DNA from: an uncultured Christensenellaceae bacterium | Lineage (GTDB): Bacteria; Bacillota; Clostridia; Christensenellales; CAG-314 | Assembly (NCBI GenBank): GCA_910587795.1 | Contig: CAJUNH010000002.1 | Span: 3,346 to 67,345 of the forward strand | Direction: 5' to 3' | DNA length: 64,000 bases | In this document: piece by piece, positions 23,386-64,000 of the stretch | Layout of the letters: every line of letters starts with the position of its first letter | Position numbering within the stretch: position 1 is the stretch's first letter | Made by a program: the position numbers and the translations under genes | The notes under the pieces: generated by a model | What the model saw: only the letters and a program-made list of their open reading frames with translations | Database searches by the model: none | What the model was told of the DNA's origin: nothing

Positions 23386-23392
23386 TACAATT

Positions 23393-24732: not shown

Positions 24733-24736
24733 TAAG

Positions 24737-27394: not shown

Positions 27395-27515
27395 AATTCT
27401 TTCCTTTATTTTTATTTAGCCGACTAAGAATCAGTTCGGCTTTATGATTTGTTGTAATATCGTTTTTTGCAAGTCACAGAATATTCGTTCAGTTACTCTA
27501 TGGCTAACACATCAC

Positions 27516-27548
27516 ATTGCCACAAGGTAAAAATTATCTTGTGGCAAT
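27516..27548 (-). terminator. Perfect 11-bp hairpin between the ATPase and pullulanase genes
   Basis: ATTGCCACAAG-11 nt-CTTGTGGCAAT. There is no clear U tract on the minus strand, so it may act as an attenuator, a processing site or a stabiliser. Confidence 0.4.
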
Positions 27549-27572
27549 ATTTTGCTTGTTTTATCTAAATTT

Positions 27573-30182: not shown

Positions 30183-30196
30183 GTATTGTTCCTCCA

Positions 30197-31810: not shown

Positions 31811-31814
31811 AATG

Positions 31815-32693
31815 TTAACCCTTTACGGAACCTCCCGTAACGCCTTCTACGTAAAACCGCTGCATCACAAAGAACATAATAATCGGCAGAATCGACACTA
31901 CGACGCCGCCCGCGCAAAATCGGGTAAAATTGTCGGACATCTTTACGTCGCTGTCTATCATCTGGAATAAACCGATAGCAACAGTCTTAAATTCCGAACC
32001 GCCGCGTCCTACGATGTAGTTTGCCATCATATAGTCGCCCCACGGCGCAACAAACGCGCCCAAAAGTGTTTGGATAATAATGGGTTTAGACAACGGCAAA
32101 ATAATAGAGAAAAATATTTTACTGCGCGACGCGCCGTCTATCATTGCCGCTTCGTCCAGCGACTTGGATATAGTGTCGAAAAATCCCTTAGATACGTAGT
32201 AGCCCATCATAGATCCGGATACGTACACCAGCATAAGCCCTACAATGGACAGGTTTGTACCGATAAGCCCCATTGCGTTAAGTATGTAGTAAATGCAAAT
32301 CATTCCCAAAAATCCGGGGAACATTCCCAAAATCAGCATAAACTTCATTAAAGGCTGTCTGCCGCTAAAACGCATACGGGATAACGCATAAGCCGTAAGC
32401 AGCGTTATTAAAGTATTGATAACGGACACAACTATTGCAATCAACAGTGTATTTACATACCAGTTTATAAACTGCGATTTCGGGTCGGTAAACAGCCATT
32501 CGTAATTTTTAAACGACCATTCCTTGGGAAACAGATACGAAACGATTGCGGTGCTTTCGCCCCTTAAAGAGGTAACTATGAGATAGAAAAACGGAAACAC
32601 CCATACTATGCTTATTACCGTAAGCAGTACGTATATAAACGAGTCTATAACTATGTTTTTAGGACTCTTTTTTGCTGTCTTAAAATATCTCAT
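31815..32693 (-). CDS. Sugar ABC transporter permease (MalG-like)
   Basis: 292 aa with six TM segments. EAA-loop context SLDEAAMIDGASRSKIFFSIILPLSKP. Confidence 0.85.
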   Translation of the reverse strand: MRYFKTAKKSPKNIVIDSFIYVLLTVISIVWVFPFFYLIVTSLRGESTAIVSYLFPKEWSFKNYEWLFTDPKSQFINWYVNTLLIAIVVSVINTLITLLTAYALSRMRFSGRQPLMKFMLILGMFPGFLGMICIYYILNAMGLIGTNLSIVGLMLVYVSGSMMGYYVSKGFFDTISKSLDEAAMIDGASRSKIFFSIILPLSKPIIIQTLLGAFVAPWGDYMMANYIVGRGGSEFKTVAIGLFQMIDSDVKMSDNFTRFCAGGVVVSILPIIMFFVMQRFYVEGVTGGSVKG

Positions 32694-34213: not shown

Positions 34214-34300
34214 ATTTCCTCCCTAAAAAAACAGCTAAACGTCCCTGTCTAGAAACAGCTCTAAACAGGGCGTAAACGTTTAGCCTAAGTAATTTTTGTT

Positions 34301-35794: not shown

Positions 35795-35844
35795 TATATT
35801 TCTCCTAATTTTTTGCTTATAATTTTATTATCTTTATTAATTAA

Positions 35845-35878
35845 CACTGTCATAGCGGACGTATCCGCTACGACAGTG
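35845..35878 (-). terminator. Intercistronic hairpin between the CBM lipoprotein and binding-protein genes
   Basis: CACTGTCATAGCGGA-cgt-ATCCGCTACGACAGTG (about 14 bp). Only a weak U tract follows, so it may be a partial terminator or a stabiliser. Confidence 0.4.
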
Positions 35879-35944
35879 AAAAATAATCTTTCGATTCTAT
35901 TCGTTTGCCCTATTTTACAGCAAAGAAATTTAATATATTTTTAA

Positions 35945-37753: not shown

Positions 37754-38236
37754 TTTGTTTCCTCCTAAAATTTTGTCCACAGCTTTGCTGTGTAAACCTA
37801 AATTAATTTCCCCTTGCCGCAAAAGCAAATATCAACCGTATTGTGATTACTATTGTTTTTTGTTAAAAAATGCGGCGCTTTCGTCCACAAAGTTATCGTT
37901 TGTATTTTCCGGTAGGGGTATATGTTTTCGTTCTTTCTAAAACGAAAACTGCCCATGGGCAGTCCACGGTATTATTTTACTTATATTATTTTCTAGTTAT
38001 CCACACATTAACGGCATTTGCAAGCCCGTGCGCGGCAGCTATACTTAAACGCAACAAGGTATTTCGCCGATATTAATTGCAATATATTATTTAAATATAT
38101 TATATTGAAATTAAATACGCAAAATTAAATGCACGGCTAAGTCAATAGTTTCTTAATTATATACTAACAGACAAAATCGTGCAAGATTTTTATTAAATAA
38201 TGAAAAAATTAAGTTTAATTTTCTTTAATAAACATA

Positions 38237-50589: not shown

Positions 50590-51636
50590 TTATGCGTAAA
50601 CAACGGTAATGCTTGCAATTCTTCTATGTCCGCTTGTTCCGCCGATTGTAAACGTTACGCTTTCGGCGCTGCCCGTCCAAACGTCGGTAGTAAACGTTCC
50701 AACGTCTACGGTTATTTCGTTACCCTTATCGTATTGAGCATAAGTAAACGCAATATACTTAATCGTGCCTTGCGCTGCGGAAATTGTAATTGTGTTTCCG
50801 CTGTACAGTCTTAAACTTTCGGTAAAATATTTAGGACCGTTGGCAGTGTTTGAACCTTGTCCGCAAGTTGCTGAAATTACGCCGTCTATTGCAAAATCAG
50901 TTGCCGGAACAGCGCCTTCCGTACCCGTACCGCCTTTTCCTGCCAAACTGATATCCGCCGTTGTTCCTTCGGGCATTTCGGGAGGATTTGGATCGGGTTT
51001 TTCTTCGCCTCCGGGATTATCTCCGCCTGCGGGAGGCGTCGTGCCGGGGTTGCCGCCGCCGGAGGGTTTTGCCGCACCGCAGCTTGTGCATTTATCGTTG
51101 CCGCCCCACACGTGTGCGCCCGCATTGATATCAGGCTTATCGCAGCCGGACACACCGCAATGCTGCTTGTGCGTTCCGTCGCCGTTATCTACCCATTGAT
51201 AGCTGTGATTGTGAGTAGGATCGGTGTTTCCGCCTTGATTTCCGCCGACGTAAACAGCGTGCGATACCGTTACGATTTCTCCGCCCAGCTTAATGGGGGC
51301 GTCCTTTTCGTCCACAAGCGTGCCCGTTAAAATATATGCAGTAACATCGGCAGGTACTGTAACGCCGACTTTATTCTCTATAGTACTAAAAGTGATTTTA
51401 TCGTTATCGGCAGTCCACCTGATTTTACAAGAGACTTCTTCGCCCTTTTCGTTAATAAAGCTTATTGTGTTATCCAACGAATAAGACGCGCCCACCGCCT
51501 TAGAATATTGCGCGTCCATTTTATCGCGCAGCAGACCGATACTGAAATCGTCCAAGCCGTTACAGCCGACAAGTACAGTCAAACATACCGCAGCCAACAT
51601 TGCTGCCAGTACAATTAGCGAAAGTTTTCTTTTCAT
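50590..51636 (-). CDS. Hypothetical lipoprotein with a Cys/His-rich module and a Gly/Pro linker
   Basis: Start at MKRKLSLIVLAAMLAAVCLTVLVGC (lipobox), with AGAGGTGA upstream. The central module reads HNHSYQWVDNGDGTHKQHCGVSGCDKPDINAGAHVWGGNDKCTSCG, followed by a GGNPGTTPPAGGDNPGGEEKPDPNPPE linker. Confidence 0.6.
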   Translation of the reverse strand: MKRKLSLIVLAAMLAAVCLTVLVGCNGLDDFSIGLLRDKMDAQYSKAVGASYSLDNTISFINEKGEEVSCKIRWTADNDKITFSTIENKVGVTVPADVTAYILTGTLVDEKDAPIKLGGEIVTVSHAVYVGGNQGGNTDPTHNHSYQWVDNGDGTHKQHCGVSGCDKPDINAGAHVWGGNDKCTSCGAAKPSGGGNPGTTPPAGGDNPGGEEKPDPNPPEMPEGTTADISLAGKGGTGTEGAVPATDFAIDGVISATCGQGSNTANGPKYFTESLRLYSGNTITISAAQGTIKYIAFTYAQYDKGNEITVDVGTFTTDVWTGSAESVTFTIGGTSGHRRIASITVVYA

Positions 51637-51744
51637 ACCGCTCACCTCTAAAAATAAATAATTTCGATGTGCGCCCGACCGTTATAAGCATTTGGACTAC
51701 GCATCTTTTTGCAGAAAAATTTGCTTAAAATATCCTGTATTTCT

Positions 51745-52202: not shown

Positions 52203-52240
52203 AATACAAAAACAACCAAGCGCAGGGCTTGGCTGTTTTG
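52203..52240 (-). terminator. Terminator closing the nuclease/ABC operon
   Basis: CAAAACAGCCAAGC-CCUGC-GCUUGGUUGUUUUUG on the minus strand. The single A-C mismatch on the plus strand is a G-U pair on the minus strand. Confidence 0.65.
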
Positions 52241-52415
52241 TACATTTAATAAACACATAAAATTATCAATCTGCAAACTTTATTGTGACAGAATCGATTT
52301 TATTACCGTAACTGTCCCCGTCTTCAATAAAGATGACCTTAAAGCCGCCTGTTTTGATAATAGCTTGCGCGGTATGTTCTTAACGGTATCAGCGTTTAGA
52401 ACAGTTTTAAGCGCA

Positions 52416-54848
52416 TTAAGCTTTGGCAGTTACTTCCGCAAGATAAGCAGGGAATACTTTTGCTTCCGTTGCGTTTGCACCGGTACGGAAACTGAATGTT
52501 GTAAAGGTTTTGTCCTTTTGCGTTCCCAGGCAAACGGACGTTGTTTCGTCAATTTTAATAACCATACTGTCTGCGGTTATAGTCCAAACGTTATATGTCT
52601 TAGCTTCTGCCTTAGGATCCTCCGGCGTACCGTTTGAACTGCCTACTTTGCCGCCGATGTTGACGTTGCTGTAAGTTCCGGAACGTGTTACGCCAAGGTA
52701 AAGTTTTGTTTCGCCGTCTTTGAAGTAAAGTTTTACTCCGCCGTCAACCTTTTCTACAAAGATATCGCTTGCCTTGTCGGCATCTTGAGTAGAATCGAGA
52801 TAGAAACCGTTAAATTTTCCAACGGCAAACAACGTTTTATTCGCCTTGTTTTGATCCATAACAAGCTTATAAGCTTTGGTTGTGCTTAAATTCGCCGTAT
52901 CTGCTTTTGTAATCGTATAAAGAGAAGCCTTAACTGTAACCGTAAACGTTTCGGTTGCGCTTTCCGCTCCGCACGTAATAGTTGCTTTAAGAGTAATTGT
53001 TGTGTCTGTTTCGGGAAGTGTGTTTACAACCAACTTGCCGCCTTTTATTTCGGCAAAAGCTACTTTGCCTACGATTTCCCAAGTTATAGCAGCCGTAGTA
53101 AACGTAGAGCCGTTTGCTCTAAGTTCAATCGTACCGCCGGCTTTGGAAATTTCCTTGGAGGGCAGGGTAAGAGTGTTCTTTTCCGCTTCGACAATTTCTT
53201 TATCGGTCATCTTTTGAGACTCTATCGCAAAGAATACGCTTGTTGTGTAGTCTCCGTGCTTGATGTCGACCTGAACGTTGACTTGTTCGTGTTTAGCAGG
53301 TGTGATTGTAAATTTACTGCCTTCAAGTTTTACGGCGTTGGATACCGAGCAAAGCTTGTATGTTAACGTTGCTCCGTCTTCGGCTGTCGGCAGCGTAACT
53401 TCCTTGTCGGCAGTTACAATGCCCTTTAAGCCTTCCGTTCCTAACGCTGCTACAAGTTTATCGTATGCCGCGCCGACCTTTGTTCCGTCGTAAACCGTAC
53501 CTGCGGGGTCTGCCGTACCGGCTTTAACGTCGTTTACGCTGCGGGGAAGAATTTGGATACCGTTTGTAGAAGCGGTCGTTTTACCGTCATCATAGTAACT
53601 TAAAATACCCGTTACGCTTACTACGTCGCCTGCTTTATAAGTTTTGCAGAGATTAGCGATTGCTTTTCCGGCGTCGTCAAAGTCGCTGCCTGTATGTTGA
53701 TAGAAGGAAGCCATATACTTAGACGTGCTAACCGCAACGTCTTTTCCGCCCTTTGTTAAGATAAGCGCAGCTGTTTTGCCGCTCGTATCGGGGGTGGAAG
53801 CAACGCTCTTAACCGTCCAGTTGGTTAAAGATACAAGCGTACCTGTATGGCGTCTTTCTGCGGGGCTGCCTGCAAGCACGTCGTTATCGATAGAGTAAAT
53901 CAATTCGTCGATATTAACCGTCTTGGAAGAATCTATTGTCCAAGTTGCATTGCCTGCGTTTGTAGTTTCGTACAATCCGTTATACAAACCATTAACTTTA
54001 CCGCTGATTTCCATATAAACGCCGGGAACAATCTTATTTGCCTCATCTTGATTGTTTTCGCCGATATCAAGACGGTAAACGTAGTAACCTGCATTCTTTT
54101 CTTCGTCTAAAAGATAGAAAGAAATGAATTTGTCGTACTTAGGATACGCTTCTGCTATTGCAACTACGTAACCTTTTAAGTCGCGGCCTACGCCTGTATT
54201 GTTATACCAGTAATCAATTTCTTCGAGGTGAGATCTTTGGATAGAAACGGTAAACTTAAAGCGACGGTCAGCCGTTCCTCCTTTATAGGAGAATGTTGCC
54301 ATAATTTCAACTTCGGGATTTAAACTGGAAGGATAAACGACGCACTGTCCGTTTTTAACTTCGATATAATCCTTATGCGCATCGTTAGGAACACTCCAAG
54401 TTATATCAGCTTTTTTTCCTTGATATTCAAAAGAACCGTCAAGATTAAAACTTTCTACAACTATCATATCTTTTTTTGCAAAGATATATTCGTCGGCGAT
54501 ATCGTCTACGATTAATGGATTAACTTTAACCGTAAACGTCCTACTTGCGTTTTTATACGAAACGGTAAGATTAACTTTTACCTGATCATCTTCAGGGAAA
54601 GTAATTTTAGCCACATAAGCGGAGCCGTCAGCTGTTTTTTCCAACTTTACAGCTTCGTTATCCGATGTCCATGTGACGTTCTTACCGCCTACCGTTGCAG
54701 GAAGTTCGAACTCGGTTGCTACTGCCTTACCGTCATTTTCAAAAACAATGCTTTTGAGAACGTCTTCGGCATCGCCGTTACAAGCAGTTAAGCAAACACC
54801 GCAAACCATTACTAAAAGCAGTAACAGTCCAATAAGTCTTTTTTTCAT
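52416..54848 (-). CDS. 810-aa lipoprotein with Ig-like repeats and OB-fold-like core modules
   Basis: Lipobox CLTAC, with AAGGAGAA upstream. Repeated LP..V.G..VTW.S.N-type Ig-like segments are present. The central segments KGYVVAIAEAY...FYLLDEEKNAGYYVY and GTLVSLTNWTVKSV...ALILTKGGKDVAV resemble the OB modules of extracellular nucleases. Confidence 0.55.
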   Translation of the reverse strand: MKKRLIGLLLLLVMVCGVCLTACNGDAEDVLKSIVFENDGKAVATEFELPATVGGKNVTWTSDNEAVKLEKTADGSAYVAKITFPEDDQVKVNLTVSYKNASRTFTVKVNPLIVDDIADEYIFAKKDMIVVESFNLDGSFEYQGKKADITWSVPNDAHKDYIEVKNGQCVVYPSSLNPEVEIMATFSYKGGTADRRFKFTVSIQRSHLEEIDYWYNNTGVGRDLKGYVVAIAEAYPKYDKFISFYLLDEEKNAGYYVYRLDIGENNQDEANKIVPGVYMEISGKVNGLYNGLYETTNAGNATWTIDSSKTVNIDELIYSIDNDVLAGSPAERRHTGTLVSLTNWTVKSVASTPDTSGKTAALILTKGGKDVAVSTSKYMASFYQHTGSDFDDAGKAIANLCKTYKAGDVVSVTGILSYYDDGKTTASTNGIQILPRSVNDVKAGTADPAGTVYDGTKVGAAYDKLVAALGTEGLKGIVTADKEVTLPTAEDGATLTYKLCSVSNAVKLEGSKFTITPAKHEQVNVQVDIKHGDYTTSVFFAIESQKMTDKEIVEAEKNTLTLPSKEISKAGGTIELRANGSTFTTAAITWEIVGKVAFAEIKGGKLVVNTLPETDTTITLKATITCGAESATETFTVTVKASLYTITKADTANLSTTKAYKLVMDQNKANKTLFAVGKFNGFYLDSTQDADKASDIFVEKVDGGVKLYFKDGETKLYLGVTRSGTYSNVNIGGKVGSSNGTPEDPKAEAKTYNVWTITADSMVIKIDETTSVCLGTQKDKTFTTFSFRTGANATEAKVFPAYLAEVTAKA

Positions 54849-54862
54849 TTTTTTTCTCCTTT

Positions 54863-56131
54863 TTATTTTATTGCTATATTGCTATAGTCCAAAATTGTAA
54901 TTTCTCCCGAGTCTTTAACAAGCTGCAAACCCGTAAGGCTAAGTACGCTGCCTACACCGATTTGATTGTTATAATTAGCGGGAGCTTTAACGGTAAAGGT
55001 AAACGTCTTTTCGTCGTCCTTAACTCCGTTGGCAATGCGCTGTTTTGCTGTGCCTTTAAATGTAATAACTCCGTTATTTACGGAAACTTCCGTAACGGTC
55101 ACGTTAGTGTACAGCACATCGGATAATTGCATGATAAACGCTTTTTGGGAGTCGAATATCATATAATAATTGCGCTGCGTCACCGTCGTTTCGCCTTCTA
55201 CGGGTATAAACGCCCCGTAAGACAGACCTGAAACTTGGAACGATCCGTTGTACTTTTGTATATTACCGATAATATGGTACATGTGACCGATTTTAAGCTT
55301 AGATACGGAAGAAGAGCTGTAACCGGCGTACACGTTGATGGAATACGTCTTGCCTGTTTCCGGTTCGTACTGCAAAGCGGTAAACGTATACGTATCGCTT
55401 GGAGATACTCTTAAATCGGTTATATACGCAGTAAATTCGACCTTTGCGCCCACATCCGTTTCCGGAATGTAAAATAATTCGTTATTTTCGATAAATTCCT
55501 TAATAGTCATTGGGATAGGATCGTTTGAATACATCGGGTCTTCCAAATCGGAATATATGCGGAGCTTGATCGATTGTGCAAATACGTTTGCCTTTTTAAA
55601 ATATTCGTTATAAGGGTACGAAGACGTGTTATCGCCCTTATTTGCCGAAAAACCGTTTTCTACTACTTCGAGATTGAGGTTTTTAAAATCGTGATCCGCC
55701 GTTTTATACCAAACGTAGCCTAAATAACGGGTGCCGTAGCTGTCCTTAACAGCTTTGGGTTCGGTTGCTTCCAAAACAACTTCCGTTGCCTGCGACAATC
55801 TGTCTTCCACAAATTTTGAAGCGGCTTTTCCCCATTTTTCTACGTTTCCCGTGCTTTCGGGCGTATCTATTTGGTAGTAGCGGATACTGACTATAGTACC
55901 TTGTACAAGCTTAAAACGCGTTGTATCTCCGTCGGTATAAGAATCGACGGTTGCAAGTCCTACTCCGTCGTCCAGGAAGGACTTGCCCTCATAATTTTTA
56001 TTTAATTTTAGCGTGGATGTTATTTTGTCGTAGTATTGCGTATTGTCCGCCACTTCATTACACGCTATAAGCCCGAATAAACAGGCGCAGGCAATAGACA
56101 AAATAATTATTATGCTAAATATTTTTTTCAT
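54863..56131 (-). CDS. Staphylococcal-nuclease (SNase/thermonuclease) family lipoprotein with an OB-like C-terminal domain
   Basis: Lipobox GLIAC. The alignment with SNase is DGDT / IRYYQIDTPES (SNase RLLLVDTPE) / KWGKAASKFVEDRL (KYGPEASAFTKKMV) / DSYGTRYLGYVWY (DKYGRGLAYIY) / NLEVVENGFS (NEALVRQGLA). Confidence 0.82.
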   Translation of the reverse strand: MKKIFSIIIILSIACACLFGLIACNEVADNTQYYDKITSTLKLNKNYEGKSFLDDGVGLATVDSYTDGDTTRFKLVQGTIVSIRYYQIDTPESTGNVEKWGKAASKFVEDRLSQATEVVLEATEPKAVKDSYGTRYLGYVWYKTADHDFKNLNLEVVENGFSANKGDNTSSYPYNEYFKKANVFAQSIKLRIYSDLEDPMYSNDPIPMTIKEFIENNELFYIPETDVGAKVEFTAYITDLRVSPSDTYTFTALQYEPETGKTYSINVYAGYSSSSVSKLKIGHMYHIIGNIQKYNGSFQVSGLSYGAFIPVEGETTVTQRNYYMIFDSQKAFIMQLSDVLYTNVTVTEVSVNNGVITFKGTAKQRIANGVKDDEKTFTFTVKAPANYNNQIGVGSVLSLTGLQLVKDSGEITILDYSNIAIK

Positions 56132-56164
56132 TAATATTTCCGTCCGTTAAATTATTTGTTTAAA

Positions 56165-57568
56165 TCAGTTGACGTTGTTACCGCCGCAGTTCTTCAATGC
56201 GTCTCTCAGCGCTTTTGCACCGTCTTTTTCCTGCTTGAGTACAAACACAATAACGTTTCCTACCTGAGTACGTGCTTCGGATGAACCGATAAACGCGGGA
56301 GAGGTAAAGTACTGATCTGTAATAGACGTTGCGATTTTTGCCGAAATAGCTGTGATTTCGGAATCGTTACCCAAAAATTCCTGATAATCGGGAAGGTCGA
56401 TTGCCGATTGAATACAGGGGTTATAACCTTGCAATTTAGCTACGGACGCTTGGTAAGCGGCGTCATACAGTTCTTTCATAAACATAAACGTCATCTTTGC
56501 TTTTGCGTCGGGGTCGGATGCTTGATCGTTTTTAAGCATAACGAGAGAAGGACCTTGAGAAATAACTTTGTTGCTTATCGTTCCGTCTTCGAGTTTGCTG
56601 CCGGGCAATGCGGAAACGCCCCAGTTAAATGCCGTAGTAGCTTGGTTTTTAGCTCCGCCGGAAGAACCTATGCAGTAAACCGCGCCGCCGGCATTGTCGT
56701 TAACGCCTTTTTTAAACAGGTTAGACGTATACGAACCGTAAATAGTTTGAGTTGTAACGTATCCCAGCTTAGCCTTGTCTTGAAGAGTATCAAGCCATGC
56801 CGCAGCCTTGTCGTTGCTGAACAAATAGTGCTTGTCGTTATCCGTACTGGTATATCCCCAACCTTGTCTTTCCGATTCGGTAATAAACCAGTTGGATTCG
56901 CTGTCGTAACCCAAAACGGTTGCCGTGGGGAATTTCTTTTTGAGAATAGGAGCTTGTTCCCACAATTCGTCCCAAGTTTTAGCAGGCTGCAAACCGCAAG
57001 CGTCCAAAGCGTCCTTGTTGTAGAACAGCAACTCTGTCGACTTAACAAACGGAAGGGTGAGCATGGAGTTTTCGTTATAACCGTATGTTTCGTAATTACT
57101 GAACATTGTTGCTTTACCTTCTTCGTAGTAGGAAGGAATAAAGTCTGCAATTTGTTCCGCCGTCATACCGAGAGTATATTCTTTGTCGCCGTTTTCGCCG
57201 CCCTTAATAACCTCTGTGGAAGTCATCATCGTGCTAAGGTCTACAACCTTTTGCGTGGGCATATAAAGCGCTACGTGGTCGGGATAGCAGTATGCCAAGT
57301 CGGGTTGAGATTGTCCCTGCAAGTCCTGAACAATCTTTTTTCTAACTTCGTCGTAGCCGCCGGGCTGTTGGTGGTCTACCTTCCAACCGGGAAACTTGTC
57401 TTCAAAAGTTTTAATGACCGTTGCAGTATACTTTTGCAAATCGTCGTTTTGTGTGGAATAGAAGACAATGGTATGATCATAGTCCACTCTCTCACAAGAC
57501 GCGAGCAAAGCTACGCCGCAAGTCAAAACTATAACTAATACCAACAAACTTGTAATTAGTTTTTTCAT
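56165..57568 (-). CDS. Extracellular solute-binding lipoprotein (family 1, sugar/CUT1 type)
   Basis: Lipobox LLASC, 467 aa, with AAGGAGAA upstream. It follows the permease genes. Confidence 0.78.
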   Translation of the reverse strand: MKKLITSLLVLVIVLTCGVALLASCERVDYDHTIVFYSTQNDDLQKYTATVIKTFEDKFPGWKVDHQQPGGYDEVRKKIVQDLQGQSQPDLAYCYPDHVALYMPTQKVVDLSTMMTSTEVIKGGENGDKEYTLGMTAEQIADFIPSYYEEGKATMFSNYETYGYNENSMLTLPFVKSTELLFYNKDALDACGLQPAKTWDELWEQAPILKKKFPTATVLGYDSESNWFITESERQGWGYTSTDNDKHYLFSNDKAAAWLDTLQDKAKLGYVTTQTIYGSYTSNLFKKGVNDNAGGAVYCIGSSGGAKNQATTAFNWGVSALPGSKLEDGTISNKVISQGPSLVMLKNDQASDPDAKAKMTFMFMKELYDAAYQASVAKLQGYNPCIQSAIDLPDYQEFLGNDSEITAISAKIATSITDQYFTSPAFIGSSEARTQVGNVIVFVLKQEKDGAKALRDALKNCGGNNVN

Positions 57569-57647
57569 AATTTCTCCTTTTTATGTTTTTATTTAATTAT
57601 TACGCATTGCCGCGCAAAAATTTACAATATAGAAAAAGTTTTTAATA

Positions 57648-58715
57648 TTAACCTTTTGTTCCGCTCTTCGATACGCCGTGCATAATATACTTACGGCAGA
57701 AGATAAACAGTATAAACAACGGTGCGGATACGATACATACAGCCGCCATACGCAATGTGGTAAGGGGTTCCGCCATGTACGCGCTGCCGACGCCGGACGG
57801 GTCGGGATACAGGAACGATCCGTTTATTTGTTTATCGTAGAATCCGCGCGTTACCCAGTTAGTTATCATTTGCCAGTTTGTACCGTTAACTAATCTCGGC
57901 CAAATGTAGGAGTTCCAACTGCCGATAAACTTTAACAAAGTTATCGATACGAGCGTAGGCGCGGTCAGCGGAACCATTACCTTAATAAGATATCCCATGT
58001 CGGACAGTCCGTCCACTTTTGCCGCTTGATACAGCGAATTGGGTATCTGCATAAAGTTGTTACGCAGTAAATAAATGTAATAAACGCTTACAAGGAAAGG
58101 AACAATCAAAACCGTAAACGTATTTTGCCATTTCCAACCCGTGATAGTAATATAGTTGGTTAGCGTATACATTTCGCCGGGAATCATCATTGTTGCAAGC
58201 ATCAGCGAAAACAATACGTTTTTACCTTTGAAATTCATTCTGGCAAGTGCGTACGCGGTAATAATGGTTACAATTACGCCTATCGTTGTGGACAAAAATC
58301 CAACAACCAGCGTGTTAAGCAATATCTGCCAGAAGTTACTGCCCGCAGTGTCGGTTTGCGCCAATACCGCCGAGTAGTTTTTCCACATAAACGTATGAGG
58401 GAAAAACGTCGGGGGAACAGCCTCGCGGTATTCCGTTTCCGTCTTAACGGAAGAAATTATCATCCAGTAGAAGGGAAGGAACGCAAATATCGCGCAAACA
58501 GTCAAAAAGAAATATACAAATACGTTTTTTGTAATTGTTGCCGCGCGTTGCTTTTTTCTTACTTTTTCTACGTCAAAATCGGTAGTCGTTTCCATCAACG
58601 TCTTAGGTTCGTCCAAAACAACGGGTTCTGTTTTGTTAGTAGTTGCTTCTTCGTTTACCACTGCCATTTTTTCCATTTCCAAGTTATTAGCAGTTTCTGT
58701 CTTTTTCTTAGCCAT
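57648..58715 (-). CDS. CUT1-type ABC permease (MalG/UgpE-like) with a polar N-terminal extension of about 60 aa
   Basis: EAA loop YQAAKVDGLSDMGYLIKVMVPLTAP. The N terminus MAKKKTETANNLEMEKMAVVNEEATTNKTEPVVLDEPKTL... precedes TM1. AGGAGG lies upstream. Confidence 0.85.
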   Translation of the reverse strand: MAKKKTETANNLEMEKMAVVNEEATTNKTEPVVLDEPKTLMETTTDFDVEKVRKKQRAATITKNVFVYFFLTVCAIFAFLPFYWMIISSVKTETEYREAVPPTFFPHTFMWKNYSAVLAQTDTAGSNFWQILLNTLVVGFLSTTIGVIVTIITAYALARMNFKGKNVLFSLMLATMMIPGEMYTLTNYITITGWKWQNTFTVLIVPFLVSVYYIYLLRNNFMQIPNSLYQAAKVDGLSDMGYLIKVMVPLTAPTLVSITLLKFIGSWNSYIWPRLVNGTNWQMITNWVTRGFYDKQINGSFLYPDPSGVGSAYMAEPLTTLRMAAVCIVSAPLFILFIFCRKYIMHGVSKSGTKG

Positions 58716-58727
58716 TCCGCTTTCCTC

Positions 58728-60047
58728 CTAATAACTCACTTTCTTTTTACTGACGTATCGGTTAAGCGCAGTTATTGCCATAATAATTATAAACAACAGC
58801 AGCGAACCCGCATACGCATAGCCCATATTACCGTCTTCGATGTATCGGTAAATGTATCCTACCATTGTACCGACGTCGTATTCGATACCCATTTGTTCGC
58901 CGAAGATACCTACTACTGCCGAATACTGCTTCATTCCGCCCATAATTCCCGTAACAAGAAGGTAGGAAATCATAGGAGAAATCATAGGAACGGTAATCTT
59001 CCACAAAACAGTATTTTTGTTTGCGCCGTCTATTTTTGCCGCGTCGTAGTACTGTTTGTTTACGTTCATAAGCGAACTGAACAAAATCAGGATTTTAAAC
59101 GGCAAACCCGACCAAATTTCGTAAACTATAACAACTATGTATTTTGCCCAAGGTATAGTAAGCGAATCGCCCAGCACCCATTTGGGAGAAGTAAAGGGAC
59201 CTTTACCTATCCAGTTTATCTGCGTACCGAAAATAAGATTTACAATACCCGGAGTTTCAAGGTGACTGTCCGTACCGATAGCGGCAAAGAACGTTGCGAA
59301 AACCGCGCCCATTGCCAAAGAGTTGGTAAGATACGGCAGGAACAATACCGTTTGATAAGCCTTTTGCAAAGGTTTAATAGAAGTAAGCGCAACCGAAATC
59401 AAAAGCGCCAACAATGTGGATAAAGGTACGGAAACAAACGTAAACACAAGCGTATTTACCAAACACTGAACAAACGACGCGCCGCCTGTTCCCGTATCGC
59501 CCCTAAGCACTTTGCCGAAGTTTGCAAAACCCCAACCGTTAAACGGATTGTTTACATCAAGAGGTCTGTAATCTTGTTTAAATGCGTTGATAAACGCGCT
59601 GACAATGGGCCATAGCGTAAATACAAGCATAAGTATTACTGCGGGCAAAACAAACAGCCAACCGGACTGAGATCTAATAAAACGTCCTGCCCTTACCTTT
59701 AAGGGGAGTTGCTGTTCAAAAGTAACGGCGGCAGCCGCAGCCTCGGCAGAATCTTGCGGCTGAGCAGTTTCGGCCGCTGCTTCTTCTCCTTTGTCCTTTT
59801 TGAACACTTTACGACAAACGGTTTTTGTCTTTACACCTATATTTACAAAAAAGTTTTTAGTTTTGCCGCCAAACGATTTAAGCCCGTCGACAAAGGCGTT
59901 GCTTTTTTCGGGAGCAGAGGCTTCGTCCGTTACAGCTTCCGCCGTCTGTTCGACGGGTTCGGTTTCCGCTACGGCAGTTTCCTCAACTTTTTGTTCCTCA
60001 ATCTCGGTCTTAACGTCGTTGGGAACAGATTTCTTTTTGTTTGCCAT
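58728..60047 (-). CDS. CUT1-type ABC permease (MalF/UgpA-like) with an acidic, low-complexity N-terminal extension of about 130 aa
   Basis: EAA loop YDAAKIDGANKNTVLWKITVPMISP. The N terminus is rich in E/A/T (EEQKVEETAVAETEPVEQTAEAVTDEASAPEK...EEAAAETAQPQDSAEAAAAAV). Confidence 0.85.
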   Translation of the reverse strand: MANKKKSVPNDVKTEIEEQKVEETAVAETEPVEQTAEAVTDEASAPEKSNAFVDGLKSFGGKTKNFFVNIGVKTKTVCRKVFKKDKGEEAAAETAQPQDSAEAAAAAVTFEQQLPLKVRAGRFIRSQSGWLFVLPAVILMLVFTLWPIVSAFINAFKQDYRPLDVNNPFNGWGFANFGKVLRGDTGTGGASFVQCLVNTLVFTFVSVPLSTLLALLISVALTSIKPLQKAYQTVLFLPYLTNSLAMGAVFATFFAAIGTDSHLETPGIVNLIFGTQINWIGKGPFTSPKWVLGDSLTIPWAKYIVVIVYEIWSGLPFKILILFSSLMNVNKQYYDAAKIDGANKNTVLWKITVPMISPMISYLLVTGIMGGMKQYSAVVGIFGEQMGIEYDVGTMVGYIYRYIEDGNMGYAYAGSLLLFIIIMAITALNRYVSKKKVSY

Positions 60048-61135
60048 TATCTTAACCTCTCTTCTGTTTCTGCTGTAAATAGGAACACCTTATTAGGTTT
60101 GAGATTAAACGTAAGCTTCGCTGCGCCTTCGGGCAGTTTAATATCCGAATCGATAATAGAACGAACGGTAGGTTTCGTAGACGCTTCGTGCGTAGAAACA
60201 ATGGTCTTATCTCTGCCCATAACTTCTATGTGGTCGAGATCCAACGTAAGTTTTCCCTTAGCATCGTAAATAAAGCCTTCGGGACGAATACCTACAAACA
60301 CCTCTTGATCTGCAAGCTTGGTTTCCATAACTGCCTCAGCGCCGATATAAACCTTACCTTTTTTGATTTGTCCTTTAAATATGTTGATAGGAGGCGTACC
60401 GAGGAAGTTAGCGACAAATAAATTATCGGGATCGTCGTAAATGTCCTGCGGAGCGCCCACTTGCTGAACAACTCCCAACTTCATAACAACCATTATGTCG
60501 CAAATAGACATGGCTTCTTCCTGGTCGTGCGTTACGAATACCGTTGTAATACCCGTTTCGCGCTGAATACGTTTGATTTCCTCACGCGTTTGCAATCTTA
60601 AACGTGCGTCAAGGTTACTTAACGGCTCGTCTAACAGCAAGACGTTAGGCATTTTTACAAGGGAACGTGCAATAGCAACGCGCTGCTGCTGACCGCCGGA
60701 CAGCTCGCTGGGTTTACGTGCCATCAAATCCTCTATTTGTACCAAACGTGCGGTATCCAAAGCCCTTGCTTTAGCTTCTTCCTTAGGAACGCGCATATTG
60801 GTAAGAGGGAACATTATGTTTTGCTCTACCGTCATATGGGGATACAATGCGTAGTTTTGGAAAACAAGACCGATGCCGCGTCTTTCGGCAGCAAGACTCG
60901 TTACGTCCTGATCGTCAAAGTAAATCTTCCCCGACGTGGGACTTTCCAGACCGGACAACATAAACAACGTAGTAGATTTACCGCAACCGGAAGGCCCTAG
61001 CAGACCGACAAGTTTACCGGAGGGGATTTCGATGCACATATTGTTGACAGCCGTTACACCGCCCTTCTTTTCTTTTCTGTCCTTCTTGTTTCTGCTGGGG
61101 AAAGTTTTGGTTAGGTTTTGAATTGTGATTTTCAT
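60047..61135 (-). CDS. MalK/UgpC-type ABC ATPase (canonical length, 362 aa)
   Basis: Walker [10 protein letters not shown], signature LSGGQQQRV, Walker [12 protein letters not shown] and H-loop VTHDQ, with a single C-terminal TOBE-like domain. Confidence 0.9.
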   Translation of the reverse strand: MKITIQNLTKTFPSRNKKDRKEKKGGVTAVNNMCIEIPSGKLVGLLGPSGCGKSTTLFMLSGLESPTSGKIYFDDQDVTSLAAERRGIGLVFQNYALYPHMTVEQNIMFPLTNMRVPKEEAKARALDTARLVQIEDLMARKPSELSGGQQQRVAIARSLVKMPNVLLLDEPLSNLDARLRLQTREEIKRIQRETGITTVFVTHDQEEAMSICDIMVVMKLGVVQQVGAPQDIYDDPDNLFVANFLGTPPINIFKGQIKKGKVYIGAEAVMETKLADQEVFVGIRPEGFIYDAKGKLTLDLDHIEVMGRDKTIVSTHEASTKPTVRSIIDSDIKLPEGAAKLTFNLKPNKVFLFTAETEERLR

Positions 61136-62331
61136 ACGCTTTCTTCCTTTCGCTTTATTATTTTTATTTTTACGTCCATTCTATAGCCTTCTACAATTAA
61201 ATTTTCCGGCATATCGACAGGCGCATAGTCCCTGTTTAAATCTATCCAAGCATTTACGCACTTACCCGCCCTAACGCGCTCGGTTACGGTGTAACCGTTT
61301 TGTTTAAGCAATGTAAATGTAACGTCTCCGTCGTTGTTGGTATACCGCACTTGTACGCTCTCGTTAAAATCGGGCAGTTCGGTAAGATCCAACGACACAG
61401 TAACCTGACAGTAATAATCGTGACCGAACGATTCCTTGTTTTCCGTCTTGCGTTTTTCCGCTTTCGATTTGCCGAGAGGAGTTTTATAATACAGCCAACG
61501 GAAAAATCTAAATATATAATGTCTGCCAACAAGGAAATCGCCAACAATATAAATAAATACAAAATAAACCAGTATCCATATTGTGGCTTTTGTATCGGCG
61601 TGTTTACGGGTTTCTCCGTACGAACTCATTGCATAATTATCGCTTTTTGCAATAAATTCTTCGTGCAATGCATTTAAGTTTTCGGACTTGTAGTCCCGAT
61701 TATATTCTTCTACAAACGCATTTACATCAGCAAAAAACTGCTGACTGTAATCAAGGACAGAGGGCAAATTAAATTCTTTAAAAACTTTGCCGTCCCTATC
61801 GATAAAAGTCAATTTGGACAGCGACCCCAACGAATCCTGATCCAAATCCAAATATATAAAACCGTTGCTTTCGTGAGTGGTTATATATCCGGCAAATTTT
61901 TTATCGCCGGTTTCTTTGTCCACAGTGTAATCAAGCAGGGTTACGTCGCAGTTCTTGCCGTTTCCGTCCGTTACAATCAGTTTGGTTTGATTGCCCTCTT
62001 CGCGCGTAACGTTGTATGTTTTACCTACCCCAAACAAAAAGCCCGTATACGATTTGTGCATTTTCTTTTGGCTTTCGTCAACCAAAGGCGCGGCTTCGAA
62101 CAGCACGACTCCTCCGCCCTCGTCAAAAGTTTGCACATATATAGGCTGACGGTTGAAATATCCGCTCGAAAGCTCAATCGCTTTATCGTAAGCACCTTGA
62201 TTAAGATAAGCTTCGATATCTATGGGAGCGCAGTACAAAATCAGTATGTACGGCAGCGTAAAAGCCATCAATAATCCAAGCGAAAACGTAAAAAGGTAGT
62301 AAATAATTTTAGGAAATAACTTTTTCTTCAT
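61132..62331 (-). CDS. Hypothetical bitopic membrane protein (399 aa) translationally coupled to the ABC ATPase
   Basis: TM1 at the N terminus, an external domain of about 220 aa, TM2 (IWILVYFVFIYIVGDFLVG), then a cytoplasmic beta-rich domain of about 110 aa. The stop overlaps the ATPase start (ATGA). Confidence 0.5.
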   Translation of the reverse strand: MKKKLFPKIIYYLFTFSLGLLMAFTLPYILILYCAPIDIEAYLNQGAYDKAIELSSGYFNRQPIYVQTFDEGGGVVLFEAAPLVDESQKKMHKSYTGFLFGVGKTYNVTREEGNQTKLIVTDGNGKNCDVTLLDYTVDKETGDKKFAGYITTHESNGFIYLDLDQDSLGSLSKLTFIDRDGKVFKEFNLPSVLDYSQQFFADVNAFVEEYNRDYKSENLNALHEEFIAKSDNYAMSSYGETRKHADTKATIWILVYFVFIYIVGDFLVGRHYIFRFFRWLYYKTPLGKSKAEKRKTENKESFGHDYYCQVTVSLDLTELPDFNESVQVRYTNNDGDVTFTLLKQNGYTVTERVRAGKCVNAWIDLNRDYAPVDMPENLIVEGYRMDVKIKIIKRKEESV

Positions 62332-62334
62332 AAA

Positions 62335-62616
62335 TTACTTACTATCTTTTTCGTTTAATTCCATTATGGTTTCGTTAGTACTATCGGTATTTTCAGGAGC
62401 AGTTTCTTGGTTTGCTTGCGCGCGGGATAAAGCGTTGGACTTAAAAGCTTCCTCGCGTTTTCTTAAATTTTCACGTTGTTCTTTATATTGTTTTTTATTC
62501 AATACCGGTATCAAAAAATATATACCTACGGCAATAGCAACAAGCGCTGCGCAAACAATAAAAAATACAATGTCCACGGCTTTAAGACCATTTATAAACA
62601 TCGCCAAGCTTATCAT
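62335..62616 (-). CDS. Small single-pass membrane protein (93 aa)
   Basis: Start MISLAMFINGLKAVDIVFFIVCAALVAIAVGIYFLIP, with AGGAGG about 11 nt upstream. A charged C-terminal tail follows. The gene ends 3 nt before the next gene. Confidence 0.45.
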   Translation of the reverse strand: MISLAMFINGLKAVDIVFFIVCAALVAIAVGIYFLIPVLNKKQYKEQRENLRKREEAFKSNALSRAQANQETAPENTDSTNETIMELNEKDSK

Positions 62617-62755
62617 ACTCGTCAATTCCTCCTGACAGTGCAGATTTAAGTCGGTAAACACTAAAAATCGAATATATTTATATGCCAAACAATAGGCGTC
62701 TACATCAAATTAAAAAATACATCGGGGCATAAATTGCCCTTTCGTCTATAAAGAC

Positions 62756-62784
62756 ATTATACACAAAGTAACCCCTTTTGGCAA
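62756..62784 (-). promoter_or_regulatory. Candidate operon promoter (TTGCCA-17 nt-TATAAT)
   Basis: On the minus strand, TTGCCA spans 62784-62779 and TATAAT spans 62761-62756, about 130 nt upstream of the 62616 start. Confidence 0.4.
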
Positions 62785-63078
62785 TACCTTTTGTTTAAAA
62801 AGTAGCAAAATATCTCGGTATTTTGCCTCTTATTCATTTAAAAACCTATTTAATTTTATTAATTGCAGCCTAATATCTTTGTTATGCTATGTCACCACTA
62901 TAACATTGTCGGTCTGCCGCAAAGAATGTCGAAATTTACGGAGAAATCCTTTCCTGCCGTATTCGGTACACGTTTATGCCCGCCTTTTGACACAGTATAA
63001 TTATTGCAAAAAAATTAATTTCATATGTATTATTTACTTACCTATATCTTGCGGCAGAGTGCATTTGCAAACGGACAT

Positions 63079-64000
63079 CTACGCGGCAAAGCGGTAACGG
63101 ACCGGCAAAACGGCGACTGTATTTCTTTGTATTGCGTTTATAAAAAGCGTCTCCGCATGTGCCGACGCGCCGTTTATTTCAACCTCAGCGGGGAAGTCTA
63201 ACGTTACGTCTTGCTTCAACAGATTTTTATTTGTATTTTGATTATCGTAAATGTAATCGTCCACGTCAACCGCGTTGTTAAGCAAATAATCTCTTGTGAT
63301 AAATCTGTAATTATAAACGCCGTCGAAATTACTGTTGGTCAACTCCGCCGGTTCGGGTGCGCCTTTGCGGAATGCCGACGGAAAATAATTATAATCTCGG
63401 TTTGTATTTTGATGGAACAGTAAATAGTCGATTACTGCAATATTATAATATTTATCCGCTTGTATAGCTTCGCCCGTAACGCGCCAAACGGAGTTTGAGC
63501 TAAAACCCGCCTCGTATAAAATATCCTTGCCGCTGACGTTAGCGACGTATACTATATTATCAAACGGAATCGCCTCGTACAATGCAGAGTAGGTAACGTT
63601 ACCTTTTGAAATTCCGCTGCGGGCATTGTTTGTCATAGCCAACGTAATATCGTGTCCCTGATTTAATGCATAGTTTGCAATAGCTCTGCACACCAATTTA
63701 GGAATCTGCGTACGGCTGTCCATATTATTTGCAAATTCAGCTACCACTTTATTACGCTCTTCCTCTATCTGCGCGTTAGAGTTGTCTACCAGCGTATCTA
63801 CGGCATGCAGATTGTCCCAATTACTGCTGTACCTAACGTTTTGCGTCAACGTACAGCTAACCGCACCCGAAGAATCTACCGAAAGCGTTACGTGCGACAC
63901 ATAATCGCCGTATCCGCCTCCCTGCACAAAAGGCAGCCCGTCTACAACAAAAATTTCCTCCTGATGGGTATGCGCGCAAAAAACCAAATCTACGTAATCT
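63079..64000 (-). CDS. 5'-nucleotidase / UshA-like metallophosphatase (C-terminal part; N terminus lies outside the window)
   Basis: The reading frame stays open to the window edge (..DYVDLVFCAHTHQ, matching the metallophosphatase GHxH-type motif). The C-terminal domain pattern GNVTYSALYEAIPFDNIVYVANVSGKDIL is typical of 5'-nucleotidase substrate-binding domains. Confidence 0.72.
   Translation of the reverse strand, partial: DYVDLVFCAHTHQEEIFVVDGLPFVQGGGYGDYVSHVTLSVDSSGAVSCTLTQNVRYSSNWDNLHAVDTLVDNSNAQIEEERNKVVAEFANNMDSRTQIPKLVCRAIANYALNQGHDITLAMTNNARSGISKGNVTYSALYEAIPFDNIVYVANVSGKDILYEAGFSSNSVWRVTGEAIQADKYYNIAVIDYLLFHQNTNRDYNYFPSAFRKGAPEPAELTNSNFDGVYNYRFITRDYLLNNAVDVDDYIYDNQNTNKNLLKQDVTLDFPAEVEINGASAHAETLFINAIQRNTVAVLPVRYRFAA

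Follow-up and report, generated by a model that had tools for sequence, protein, structure and literature searches.

An eight-gene, minus-strand operon in the 64,000-nt window (the whole stretch of DNA analyzed) joins a staphylococcal-nuclease-type (SNase) lipoprotein, an OB/Ig lipoprotein and an ABC importer in one conserved unit, and it probably (at a probability of roughly 0.6) serves nucleic-acid scavenging, by which a gut bacterium would feed on extracellular nucleic acid. The firm ground for this reading is the gene content, the domain identities, the intact catalytic and phosphate-binding residues and the deep synteny of the locus.

The initial annotation had placed eight close-set ORFs here, and these were recovered at 62616 to 52416 (g1 to g8), uninterrupted under the standard code (table 11), with spacing of -4 to 79 nt and successive intergenic gaps of 3, -4, -1, 12, 79, 33 and 14 nt. 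A single promoter and a single terminator had also been proposed, and both were located. Upstream lies a near-consensus sigma-70-type site (TTGCCA-17-TATAAT; 62756..62784, minus strand) that matches 11 of 12 consensus positions and is the top match in 51.5-64 kb. Promoter-like sites were not enriched over shuffled sequences (29 found, 24 expected), so this site is a candidate only, by its consensus match. The 130-nt leader downstream of it contained no significant structure (z -0.04) and gave no match in an Rfam search. The operon ends in an intrinsic terminator (52209..52239, minus strand), where a 13-bp stem forms a strong hairpin (-21 kcal/mol, z -3.49) with a T-run; beyond it, the following gene has a promoter-like site of its own (51773-51745). 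Tight spacing and the strong terminator count for nucleic-acid scavenging, and g1 to g8 are likely to be co-transcribed.

The order of all eight genes was the same in ~40 genomes at species level that bear the label Clostridia or Christensenellaceae, and the core, which runs from the ATPase through both permeases and the binding protein to the SNase, reached lineages related to the Mollicutes, in Acholeplasmatales, Anaeroplasmataceae, ‘Bacilli’ and Erysipelotrichaceae MAGs. This strong synteny upholds the earlier proposal that nuclease and importer belong together. Downstream of the operon, at a distance of 1-5 kb, 14 of the ~26 relatives with enough flank carry surE and two DHH/DHHA1 (NrnA-like) genes, and NrnA-like pairs are also present at Acholeplasmatales loci, which counts for scavenging; neither surE nor NrnA was found within this window, which counts against it. 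The linkage in relatives may be due in part to shared ancestry.

The nuclease, g7 (54863..56131, minus strand; 422 aa), is a lipoprotein (lipobox LIAC) with an N-terminal SNase domain (~60-195; PF00565, E 1e-12, over the Pfam cut-off) and two C-terminal beta-rich modules (~200-422). All four motifs quoted initially are present, DGDT at 67-70, RYYQIDTPE at 84-92, KWGKAASKF at 99-107 and YGTRYLGYVWY at 132-142, but the spacing is R-x4-DTPE and not R-x4-IDTPE. When aligned to S. aureus nuclease, D67/D69 correspond to D19/D21, R84 to R35, D89/T90/E92 to D40/T41/E43 and R135 to R87. The catalytic and Ca2+ residues are complete and invariant across 15 diverse homologs, and the family comprises more than 2000 homologous clusters. 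With its active-site residues intact, the domain is predicted not to be catalytically dead, a possibility that the initial annotation had named as speaking against its proposal. The C-terminal modules gave only weak OB hints, and a profile comparison with the OB modules of g8 found no match.

Directly downstream of the nuclease in ~35 loci is g8 (52416..54848, minus strand), an 810-aa lipoprotein (lipobox LTAC) composed of an Ig-like/OB-like mosaic and a C-terminal beta domain, whose relatives are frequently 1200-1400 aa. Pfam detected aBig_2 in g8 (E 2e-11). The profile PF01336, for nucleic-acid-binding OB folds, is sub-threshold in the window’s own g8 (18.6 bits, cut-off 27), which counts against scavenging; 16 of 23 family members match it (best E 3e-14), which counts for scavenging. 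In the AlphaFold model (pLDDT 88), two beta-barrel-like modules stand between Ig-like domains; from the strand pattern, the Ig-like domains were read at 40-110, 125-201, 482-544 and 573-639, the barrels at 221-310 and 338-434, and the beta domain at 644-808. Family profile and model together bear out the OB-like cores suggested earlier, and g8 may bind nucleic acid.

The transporter is UgpAEC-like, with scores far under the NCBIfam equivalog cut-offs. Its ATPase, g3 (60047..61135, minus strand; 362 aa), is of the UgpC/MalK type (Pfam ABC_tran, E 5e-37, and a weak MalK OB match; best NCBIfam match UgpC, E 6e-105), and its identity is 59-89% in 44 of 49 related loci. Both permeases are syntenic: g4 (58728..60047, minus strand; 439 aa) is of the UgpA/MalF type and is extended at its N-terminus by ~120 hydrophilic residues (BPD_transp_1, E 1e-11; best NCBIfam match UgpA), and g5 (57648..58715, minus strand; 355 aa) is of the UgpE/MalG type (BPD_transp_1, E 4.5e-12; best NCBIfam match UgpE, E 4e-29).

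The substrate-binding protein, g6 (56165..57568, minus strand; 467 aa), is a lipoprotein (lipobox LASC) matching SBP_bac_8 and SBP_bac_1 in Pfam. It had been described as sugar-family; its membership in CUT1 stands, and the assignment is now sharpened to the UgpB (phosphate-ester) clade. The best solved relatives of the g6 family profile were 7C0F and its mutants (E 7e-34), followed by UgpB 4AQ4, 6X84, 9LFF and then M. tuberculosis UgpB, such that every match next after 7C0F is a G3P or GPC binder. 7C0F is a dinucleotide (UpG)-binding protein of Thermus thermophilus (Chandravanshi et al. 2021, cited in PMC12718374). The phosphate-coordinating residues Tyr64, Ser143, Ser266 and Tyr342 have aligned counterparts in g6 at Y72, S177, S302 and Y382, and these four do not vary within the g6 family. 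As an internal control, the window’s other CUT1 binding protein, located among amylases and a pullulanase, matched maltodextrin binders and not UgpB. Since g6 falls in the UgpB clade and its best solved relative binds UpG, homology suggests that its cargo is phosphorylated fragments of nucleic acid and not sugars or nucleosides. NCBIfam UgpB matched 19 of 19 g6 family members, all far under the equivalog cut-off; the window’s own g6 scored 43 bits against a cut-off of 411, which counts against scavenging. In addition, an insertion of ~50 residues (~113-165) with its own invariant residues is missing from the solved relatives. Given the sub-cut-off score and this insertion, the g6 pocket is not readable by homology.

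Two membrane proteins open the operon. g1 (62335..62616, minus strand; 93 aa), a single-pass protein with a charged C-terminal tail, has an AGGAGG ribosome-binding site preceding its ATG at 62616, is kept immediately upstream of g2 in ~33 related loci, and gave only sub-threshold, meaningless matches to Pfam and NCBIfam and thus has no known family there. g2 (61132..62331, minus strand; 399 aa) is a two-TM protein of an orphan family, with no match in Pfam or NCBIfam and only generic beta-sandwiches in a Foldseek search of the PDB; among 1.84 billion representatives it matched 129 clusters, none of them named. Its AlphaFold model (pLDDT 85) has TM helices at 5-45 and 239-268 and strand-rich regions at 58-235 and 307-393, which suggests an extracellular beta domain and a cytoplasmic beta-sandwich. 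g2 invariably adjoins the ATPase (34 loci) and overlaps it by 4 nt, its stop codon overlapping the g3 start, and g1 and g2 may be lineage-specific membrane accessories translationally coupled to the ATPase.

The activities of all eight products are predicted from sequence, and together they would form the following pathway. The OB/Ig lipoprotein g8 would retain extracellular DNA or RNA on the cell surface, where membrane-anchored g7 would cleave it, presumably in a Ca2+-dependent manner, to 3’-phosphorylated mono-, di- and short oligonucleotides. These phosphate-ester products would be bound by g6 and imported through the g4/g5 permeases powered by the g3 ATPase, and nano-RNases and nucleotidases could finish them in the cytoplasm, as the surE and NrnA-like genes near the operon in many relatives would suggest.

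The classical view, in which nucleotides lose their phosphate before uptake (PMC8289736), counts against scavenging of this kind and favors external dephosphorylation by the neighboring 5’-nucleotidase, followed by ABC import of nucleosides or ribose/deoxyribose. The upstream gene (63079..64000, minus strand) was correctly named a 5’-nucleotidase: the C-terminal part of 302 residues visible before the window end matches 5_nucleotid_C (E 2e-11), and its full-length L001 ortholog (55% identity) is an 878-aa lipoprotein with Metallophos and 5_nucleotid_C. However, among the ~36 loci whose upstream flank is available, such a gene adjoins the operon only in L001 and, weakly, in L021; it therefore falls outside the conserved unit, and so does the dephosphorylation step proposed initially. 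The nucleoside ABC importers known to us use BMP/PnrA-type binding proteins and not CUT1 proteins, whereas g6 keeps the phosphate-coordinating Tyr/Ser set of its clade, which makes this route unlikely.

Canonical Ugp-like import of G3P or glycerophosphodiesters, with the nuclease co-expressed for general phosphate scavenging and not for ligand supply, is quite improbable, even though UgpB/A/E/C are the top NCBIfam names for the four transporter parts and G3P and GPC binders rank just under 7C0F. The Y221/W227 aromatic pair of g6 aligns with the Trp188/Trp191 clamp of UgpB, but Trp is replaced by Tyr and a 3-residue insertion is present. In M. pneumoniae the homologous transporter carries a G3P annotation (PMC3178575), which favors G3P import, and nucleotide cargo in Mollicutes is putative; both points count against scavenging. 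The low equivalog scores and the linked genes (nuclease, OB protein, NrnA, SurE, and no glycerophosphodiesterase or glycerol-metabolism gene among the loci compared) argue against G3P import. Least of all do we favor a non-nutritional nuclease and OB lipoprotein (eDNA/biofilm matrix remodelling, DNA-trap escape or competence-like DNA processing) beside a transporter for an unrelated glycan. Mollicutes homologs do break down NETs and are cytotoxic (PMC9740415, PMC7954426), and sugars are the usual cargo of CUT1 systems, but the nuclease-binding protein adjacency holds across deeply separated lineages, the operon lacks the glycoside hydrolases of the true sugar locus in the same window, and no glycan binder matches g6 better than phosphate-ester binders do.

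Nucleic-acid scavenging by such a locus is less novel than was first claimed. A capture-cleave-import model is already published for Mollicutes (PMC4045577, PMC3585158, PMC5533444), in which the homologous genes are co-transcribed and MslA, an SBP-like lipoprotein, binds DNA in both ss and ds form, which counts for scavenging here; the Mollicutes operon, a single transcription unit, is likewise proposed to bind, cleave and import (PMC3585158, PMC4045577, PMC5533444, PMC9740415). Examples of this ‘nucleotide transporter’ operon are M. agalactiae MAG_5030-5070 with P80, M. gallisepticum MslA-MGA_0676, M. hyopneumoniae mhp379, M. hominis MHO_0720-0760 and M. bovis MBOVPG45_0307-0311. Both arrangements place an SNase-domain lipoprotein immediately after an SBP-like lipoprotein and link them to one UgpC-type ATPase and two permeases, and Acholeplasmatales and Anaeroplasmataceae loci are intermediate in form. 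In the window, however, the order is rotated (transporter first, lipoproteins last), g6 is a compact 467-aa UgpB-like protein while P80/MslA is ~700 aa, g7 has ~220 additional C-terminal residues, three extra conserved genes are present (g1, g2 and OB/Ig g8), and the hosts are labelled Clostridia/Christensenellaceae, not Mollicutes, with operon genes that stay uninterrupted under table 11.

Nuclease-plus-ABC ‘DNA degradation loci’ are also known in Ca. Izemoplasmataceae and Hujiaoplasma nucleasis (PMC8289736, PMC10470597), where extracellular nucleases cluster with ABC transporters, phosphohydrolases and NrnA, and the Hujiaoplasma locus is DNA/RNA-induced. The NrnA-like and SurE association in relatives of the window operon resembles these by gene content, whereas those loci differ in composition, with several nucleases and an ABC transporter for phosphate, and their hosts are marine wall-less bacteria, not gut Firmicutes. 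The E. coli/marine UgpBAEC G3P importer has the same transporter architecture and is the best family-level match for four components, but the window operon falls under the equivalog thresholds, its Trp clamp for glycerol is modified, and its genomic partners are nucleases and not glycerol/phosphate genes. 7C0F shares the UgpB branch of CUT1 and the phosphate-coordinating Tyr/Ser with g6, but is ~60 residues shorter and lacks both the lipid anchor and the ~50-residue insertion; we know of no nuclease neighbor reported for it. B. subtilis YhcR carries OB folds, an SNase domain and a 5’-nucleotidase module at the cell surface, and the locus had been pictured as its disaggregated form. YhcR is a single sortase-anchored polypeptide without a linked transporter, whereas the window’s modules are separate lipoproteins with an importer and without a nucleotidase as conserved partner; the likeness is one of analogy and not of relationship. 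What is new here is the two unannotated membrane proteins (g1 and g2), the OB/Ig lipoprotein g8 and the host lineage, and the window operon is a larger relative of the mycoplasma SNase/ABC system.

Eight co-directional genes, numbered here g1 to g8 in the order of transcription, run along the minus strand of the window from 62616 to 52416: g1 (62616-62335, 93 aa), g2 (62331-61132, 399 aa), the ABC ATPase g3 (61135-60047, 362 aa), the permeases g4 (60047-58728, 439 aa) and g5 (58715-57648, 355 aa), the binding lipoprotein g6 (57568-56165, 467 aa), the SNase lipoprotein g7 (56131-54863, 422 aa) and the OB/Ig lipoprotein g8 (54848-52416, 810 aa). Successive genes are 3, -4, -1, 12, 79, 33 and 14 nt apart, and a purine-rich Shine-Dalgarno-like sequence precedes most of the starts, being weak or absent at g2 and g7. 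The best promoter-like site of the region, TTGCCA-17-TATAAT (62784-62756, minus strand, 11/12 match), remains a candidate because promoter-like sites in this region do not rise above the shuffle level. The hairpin at 52239-52209 on the minus strand (13-bp stem followed by a T-run, -21 kcal/mol, z -3.5) makes a convincing intrinsic terminator, and the gene downstream of the operon has a separate promoter-like site of its own. The close gene spacing, together with a single promoter-like site and a single terminator, suggests that g1-g8 form one transcription unit. The initial annotation had described the operon accurately, as its ORF coordinates, tight gaps, promoter candidate and terminator were all recovered. 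A leader RNA or riboswitch 5' of g1 was rejected (no Rfam match at the gathering or E-value threshold, and a fold at the shuffle level), and a 9-mer search of 33 regions 5' of the operon returned A/T-rich words only.

Scanning one genome per species yielded 49 related loci (designated by L numbers such as L001), with which all proteins of the window were then compared by tblastn. Conservation of the neighbourhood, which the initial annotation had named as a point to check, was borne out: the full order g1-g2-ATPase-permease-permease-binding protein-SNase-OB/Ig occurs in about 34 of the 49 loci, truncated contigs being consistent with it, and the arrangement of SNase and transporter cluster is conserved in 44 of 49, those that include the transporter region. 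The core from the ATPase through both permeases and the binding protein to the SNase is also present in MAGs of Anaeroplasmataceae and Acholeplasmatales, at 35-40% identity, and, with a short SNase, in MAGs of 'Bacilli' and Erysipelotrichaceae. The taxonomic labels of these records are unreliable. Candidatus Fimimonas (taxid 2840821), the closest named relative, is placed by NCBI under Myxococcaceae, which conflicts with gene content and with the labels of the other records; MAGs of the lineage are partly titled 'Corallococcus sp.' (L002 and L032 among them), and other records of the gene cluster are filed under Clostridia, Christensenellaceae, Oscillospiraceae, Bacilli or Anaeroplasmataceae. 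The host is taken here simply as an uncultured Firmicute with a Clostridia/Christensenellaceae label.

The g7 lipoprotein (lipobox LIAC) contains an SNase domain at residues 83-194 (PF00565, E 1e-12, 49 bits against a cut-off of 21), and the same profile matches 15 of 15 family members. In alignment with the S. aureus nuclease, D67/D69 correspond to D19/D21, R84 to R35, D89/T90/E92 to D40/T41/E43 and R135 to R87; in the S. aureus enzyme D21, D40 and T41 are Ca2+ ligands and R35, E43 and R87 are catalytic. All of these aligned residues are present in g7 and invariant across the 15 homologs, down to 53% identity, in agreement with the earlier observation that the catalytic constellation is kept. 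Nothing suggests a dead enzyme, and g7 is predicted to be active, presumably as a Ca2+-dependent nuclease that leaves 3'-phosphate ends. The C-terminal ~220 residues are conserved as well. In this half Pfam gave scattered weak OB hints only, and assignment of its modules as OB folds was rejected after profile-profile comparison with the OB modules of g8 (probabilities <10%). A G-x-(V/I)-x-(V/I)-x-G...Q-(I/V) signature is shared by g7 and g8, its Gly and Gln being invariant; in our reading it is of the kind seen in OB beta4-beta5 hairpins. The g7 nuclease family comprises more than 2158 clusters, and its full-length relatives, 50-72% identical, stem almost exclusively from uncultured bacteria. 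Two relatives (L040, 122-2566; L035, 240-2162) also encode, about 1 kb before the start of the operon, an extracellular nuclease of another type, an 814-aa Endonuclease I + Big_2 protein.

The g8 lipoprotein (LTAC) contains an aBig_2 domain. The OB profile PF01336 is sub-threshold in g8 itself (18.6 bits, cut-off 27) and matches 16 of 23 aligned homologs (best E 3e-14), the relatives with these OB folds often being 1200-1400 aa long. The AlphaFold model (pLDDT 88) has barrel-like modules at the place homologous to the OB folds of the relatives, and we read its strands as two such modules (221-310, 338-434) together with four putative Ig-like domains and, at the C-terminus, a beta domain. Whole-chain Foldseek against the PDB was dominated by multi-Ig proteins, the Ig repeats swamping the search.

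The transporter consists of an ABC ATPase (g3) and two binding-protein-dependent permeases (g4 and g5). Both permeases bear hydrophilic, acidic N-terminal extensions of about 120 (g4) and 60 (g5) residues, which relatives keep in part only. Pfam and NCBIfam searches returned no family for g1 or g2. The predicted model of g2 (pLDDT 85) has long helices at 5-45 and 239-268 on either side of a segment rich in strands, and a further such segment at 307-393; we read this as two probable TM helices, with a beta domain outside the cell and a beta-sandwich in the cytoplasm. Foldseek of g2 against the PDB found generic beta-sandwiches only and no informative structural neighbour. An exhaustive profile search of 1.84 billion representatives returned 129 clusters for g2, and 0 of 10 distant relatives looked up was named or annotated. 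The gene occurs solely beside the ATPase and is missing from the Mollicutes-like loci.

The cargo of g6 had been left open in the initial annotation. A profile of 19 g6 orthologs matched best to the 7C0x series of solved structures (E 7e-34), then to E. coli and marine UgpB, with M. tuberculosis UgpB third; the best 19 matches all belong to these groups, and sugar binders come lower. With phosphate-ester binders, not sugar binders, as its closest solved relatives, g6 falls in the UgpB clade of CUT1. According to PMC12718374, 7C0F is the uridylyl-3'-5'-phosphoguanosine-binding protein of Thermus thermophilus, and its pocket is four times larger than in the G3P-binding UgpB. Binders of G3P, GPC and UpG, unlike glucose binders, strictly conserve a phosphate-coordinating set of two Tyr and two Ser; in the UgpB-type structure 9LFF they are Tyr64, Ser143, Ser266 and Tyr342 (PMC12718374). 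Profile alignment to 7C0x and pairwise alignment to 9LFF place Y72, S177, S302 and Y382 of g6 at this set (Y72 by the 7C0x alignment only), and all four are invariant in the family. The place of the Trp188/Trp191 glycerol clamp of UgpB is taken in g6 by Y221 and W227, set further apart by three inserted residues, and g6 carries a further conserved insertion of about 50 residues. As an internal control, the second CUT1 binding protein of the window (34301-35794), encoded among amylases and pullulanase, matched maltodextrin-type binders and no UgpB. From the profile ranking, the Tyr/Ser set, the altered clamp and the control protein we conclude that the ligand of g6 is probably a phosphate ester larger than, or different from, G3P, and a nucleotide, dinucleotide or short oligonucleotide would be the obvious candidate.

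Flanking ORFs were also clustered across the related loci. A surE gene and two DHH/DHHA1 (NrnA-like) genes in tandem lie 1-5 kb downstream of the operon, mostly convergent to it, in 14 of the ~26 loci with enough downstream sequence (L001, 15992-18630; L002, 16075-18811; L015, 14918-17588; L020, 14646-17407; L043, 15480-17412; and 9 further loci). Two loci of Acholeplasmatales likewise have an NrnA-like pair behind the operon, and a fusion of NT5C, a 5'(3')-deoxyribonucleotidase, with guanylate kinase lies just past the surE/nrnA cluster in five relatives (L039, 18518-19831; also L016, L020, L021 and L029). Within the window itself neither surE, the NrnA-like pair nor the fusion is present. 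SurE removes phosphate from 3'- and 5'-nucleotides, and NrnA breaks down very short oligonucleotides; these activities would be the cytoplasmic steps that imported SNase products need. Shared ancestry may account for part of the linkage.

We estimate a probability of about 0.6 that this is a nucleic-acid scavenging operon, in which g8 would capture extracellular nucleic acid, g7 would then cut it, and g6 would bind phosphate-bearing fragments for import by g3-g5. Import of nucleic-acid breakdown products as such is likely; for a cargo that is still phosphorylated, the odds fall slightly short of even. The initial annotation had instead suggested that dephosphorylation comes between cleavage and uptake, read here as a nucleoside route through the 5'-nucleotidase. 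A 5'-nucleotidase gene does neighbour the operon in the window (63079-64000); among the related loci its counterpart is adjacent in L001 only (449-3085), with a weak match in L021, and synteny rules it out as a component of the system. We regard the nucleoside route as rather unlikely.

A canonical Ugp system for G3P or glycerophosphodiesters, placed within a phosphate-scavenging unit, would agree with the top NCBIfam names of the transporter (UgpC for g3, UgpA for g4, UgpE for g5). Every one of these scores is under the equivalog cut-off, g6 reaches 43 bits against a cut-off of 411 for the G3P-binding UgpB equivalog, and we consider this explanation unlikely. It is very unlikely that a non-nutritional nuclease stands beside an unrelated glycan transporter: in the g6 profile ranking, sugar binders come below the phosphate-ester binders. 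Within the scavenging reading, a more specific and tentative proposal is a dedicated importer of phosphorylated fragments (3'-nucleotides, dinucleotides, short oligonucleotides) that works without external dephosphorylation. Here the long Ig/OB lipoprotein might act as a stalk catching polymer at the surface, and g1 and g2 might represent a new class of membrane accessory, one that couples the surface nuclease complex to the ABC transporter.

The kind of system to which the operon belongs is already known. Mycoplasmas encode an SNase lipoprotein beside an ABC transporter (mhp379, MAG_5040, MGA_0676, MG_186, Mpn133, MHO_0730), with an SBP-like lipoprotein (P80, MslA, MHO_0720) directly 5' of the nuclease gene. 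M. agalactiae co-transcribes the lipoprotein and transporter genes, and in M. hominis they are co-regulated (PMC3585158, PMC5533444); MslA binds ss and dsDNA (PMC3585158, PMC4045577, PMC5533444). PMC4045577 explicitly sets out a model in which oligonucleotides are bound, cleaved and imported through the ABC transporter, and reviews restate it (PMC9740415, PMC12115388); in M. pneumoniae the transporter bears a G3P annotation (PMC3178575). Loci combining nuclease, ABC and phosphohydrolase genes occur in Ca. Izemoplasmataceae (PMC8289736), and a nuclease/NrnA/ABC locus of Hujiaoplasma is induced by DNA and RNA (PMC10470597). As in the Mollicutes operon, an ATPase of the UgpC type, two CUT1 permeases and the SNase lipoprotein are encoded in one direction as a single cluster. 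A candidate counterpart of P80/MslA is g6, which agrees with it in fold class and in its position directly 5' of g7; 13 of 19 members of the g6 family give sub-threshold matches to the NCBIfam 'P68 family surface lipoprotein'. Unlike the Mollicutes operon, the variant in the window is larger and rearranged, belongs to another host group and includes three additional conserved genes, of which two fall in no known family. What is new is this host group, the extra genes and a testable hypothesis for the g6 ligand; a literature search of incomplete coverage found no report of such a system in Clostridia-type gut bacteria. The operon does not conform to the YhcR type cited in the initial annotation: YhcR joins OB, SNase and 5'-nucleotidase in one wall-anchored polypeptide, whereas the domains here are on separate lipoproteins and the nucleotidase is not syntenic in relatives.

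Several other features of the window were recorded. The 5'-nucleotidase gene stops about 125 residues short of its L001 ortholog, whose C-terminus has an OB-like signature (GDEILLYAKG...NGSPQIG); tblastn found no remnant of that C-terminal part in the window. Just downstream of the operon, a 351-aa lipoprotein (50590-51645) without a Pfam match has His/Cys-rich segments (HNHSYQW...HKQHCG..GC) resembling the N-terminal repeated units of the L001 5'-nucleotidase lipoprotein (449-1270). Besides alpha-amylases and a pullulanase, a starch/maltodextrin utilisation locus (21620-37828) encodes a CUT1 binding protein with two permeases and a MalK-type ATPase of unusual length (874 aa, ~500 extra C-terminal residues). 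Between this locus and the operon region is a predicted 1674-aa surface protein (43280-48304) with DUF2846, InlB-B-repeat-like and fn3-like segments. Another surface nuclease or phosphodiesterase may be encoded at 19567-20712, where the 381-aa product belongs to the endonuclease/exonuclease/phosphatase family and has a membrane anchor at its N-terminus. An anaerobic ribonucleotide reductase NrdD with ATP-cone (8840-11203) adjoins a thioredoxin-reductase-like flavoprotein (7918-8823), a pair consistent with an anaerobe making dNTPs from NTPs.

The virulence link of the mycoplasma counterpart is more than 15 years old. The version in the window is far easier for ligand screening and structure determination because of the standard genetic code and a compact g6 whose closest solved relative binds a dinucleotide. 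It is chiefly of value as a tractable model for the cargo of the nuclease-linked transporter of mycoplasmas. If the dedicated importer of phosphorylated fragments is real, one ligand class would explain the MslA/P80-nuclease-ABC virulence locus of Mollicutes. Nucleotides are commonly assumed to lose their phosphate before uptake, an assumption that a phosphorylated cargo would call into revision. DNA and RNA outside cells are plentiful in the gut, and through a widespread, conserved capture-cleave-import module nucleic acid would become a defined nutrient niche of a little-known group of uncultured Firmicutes.
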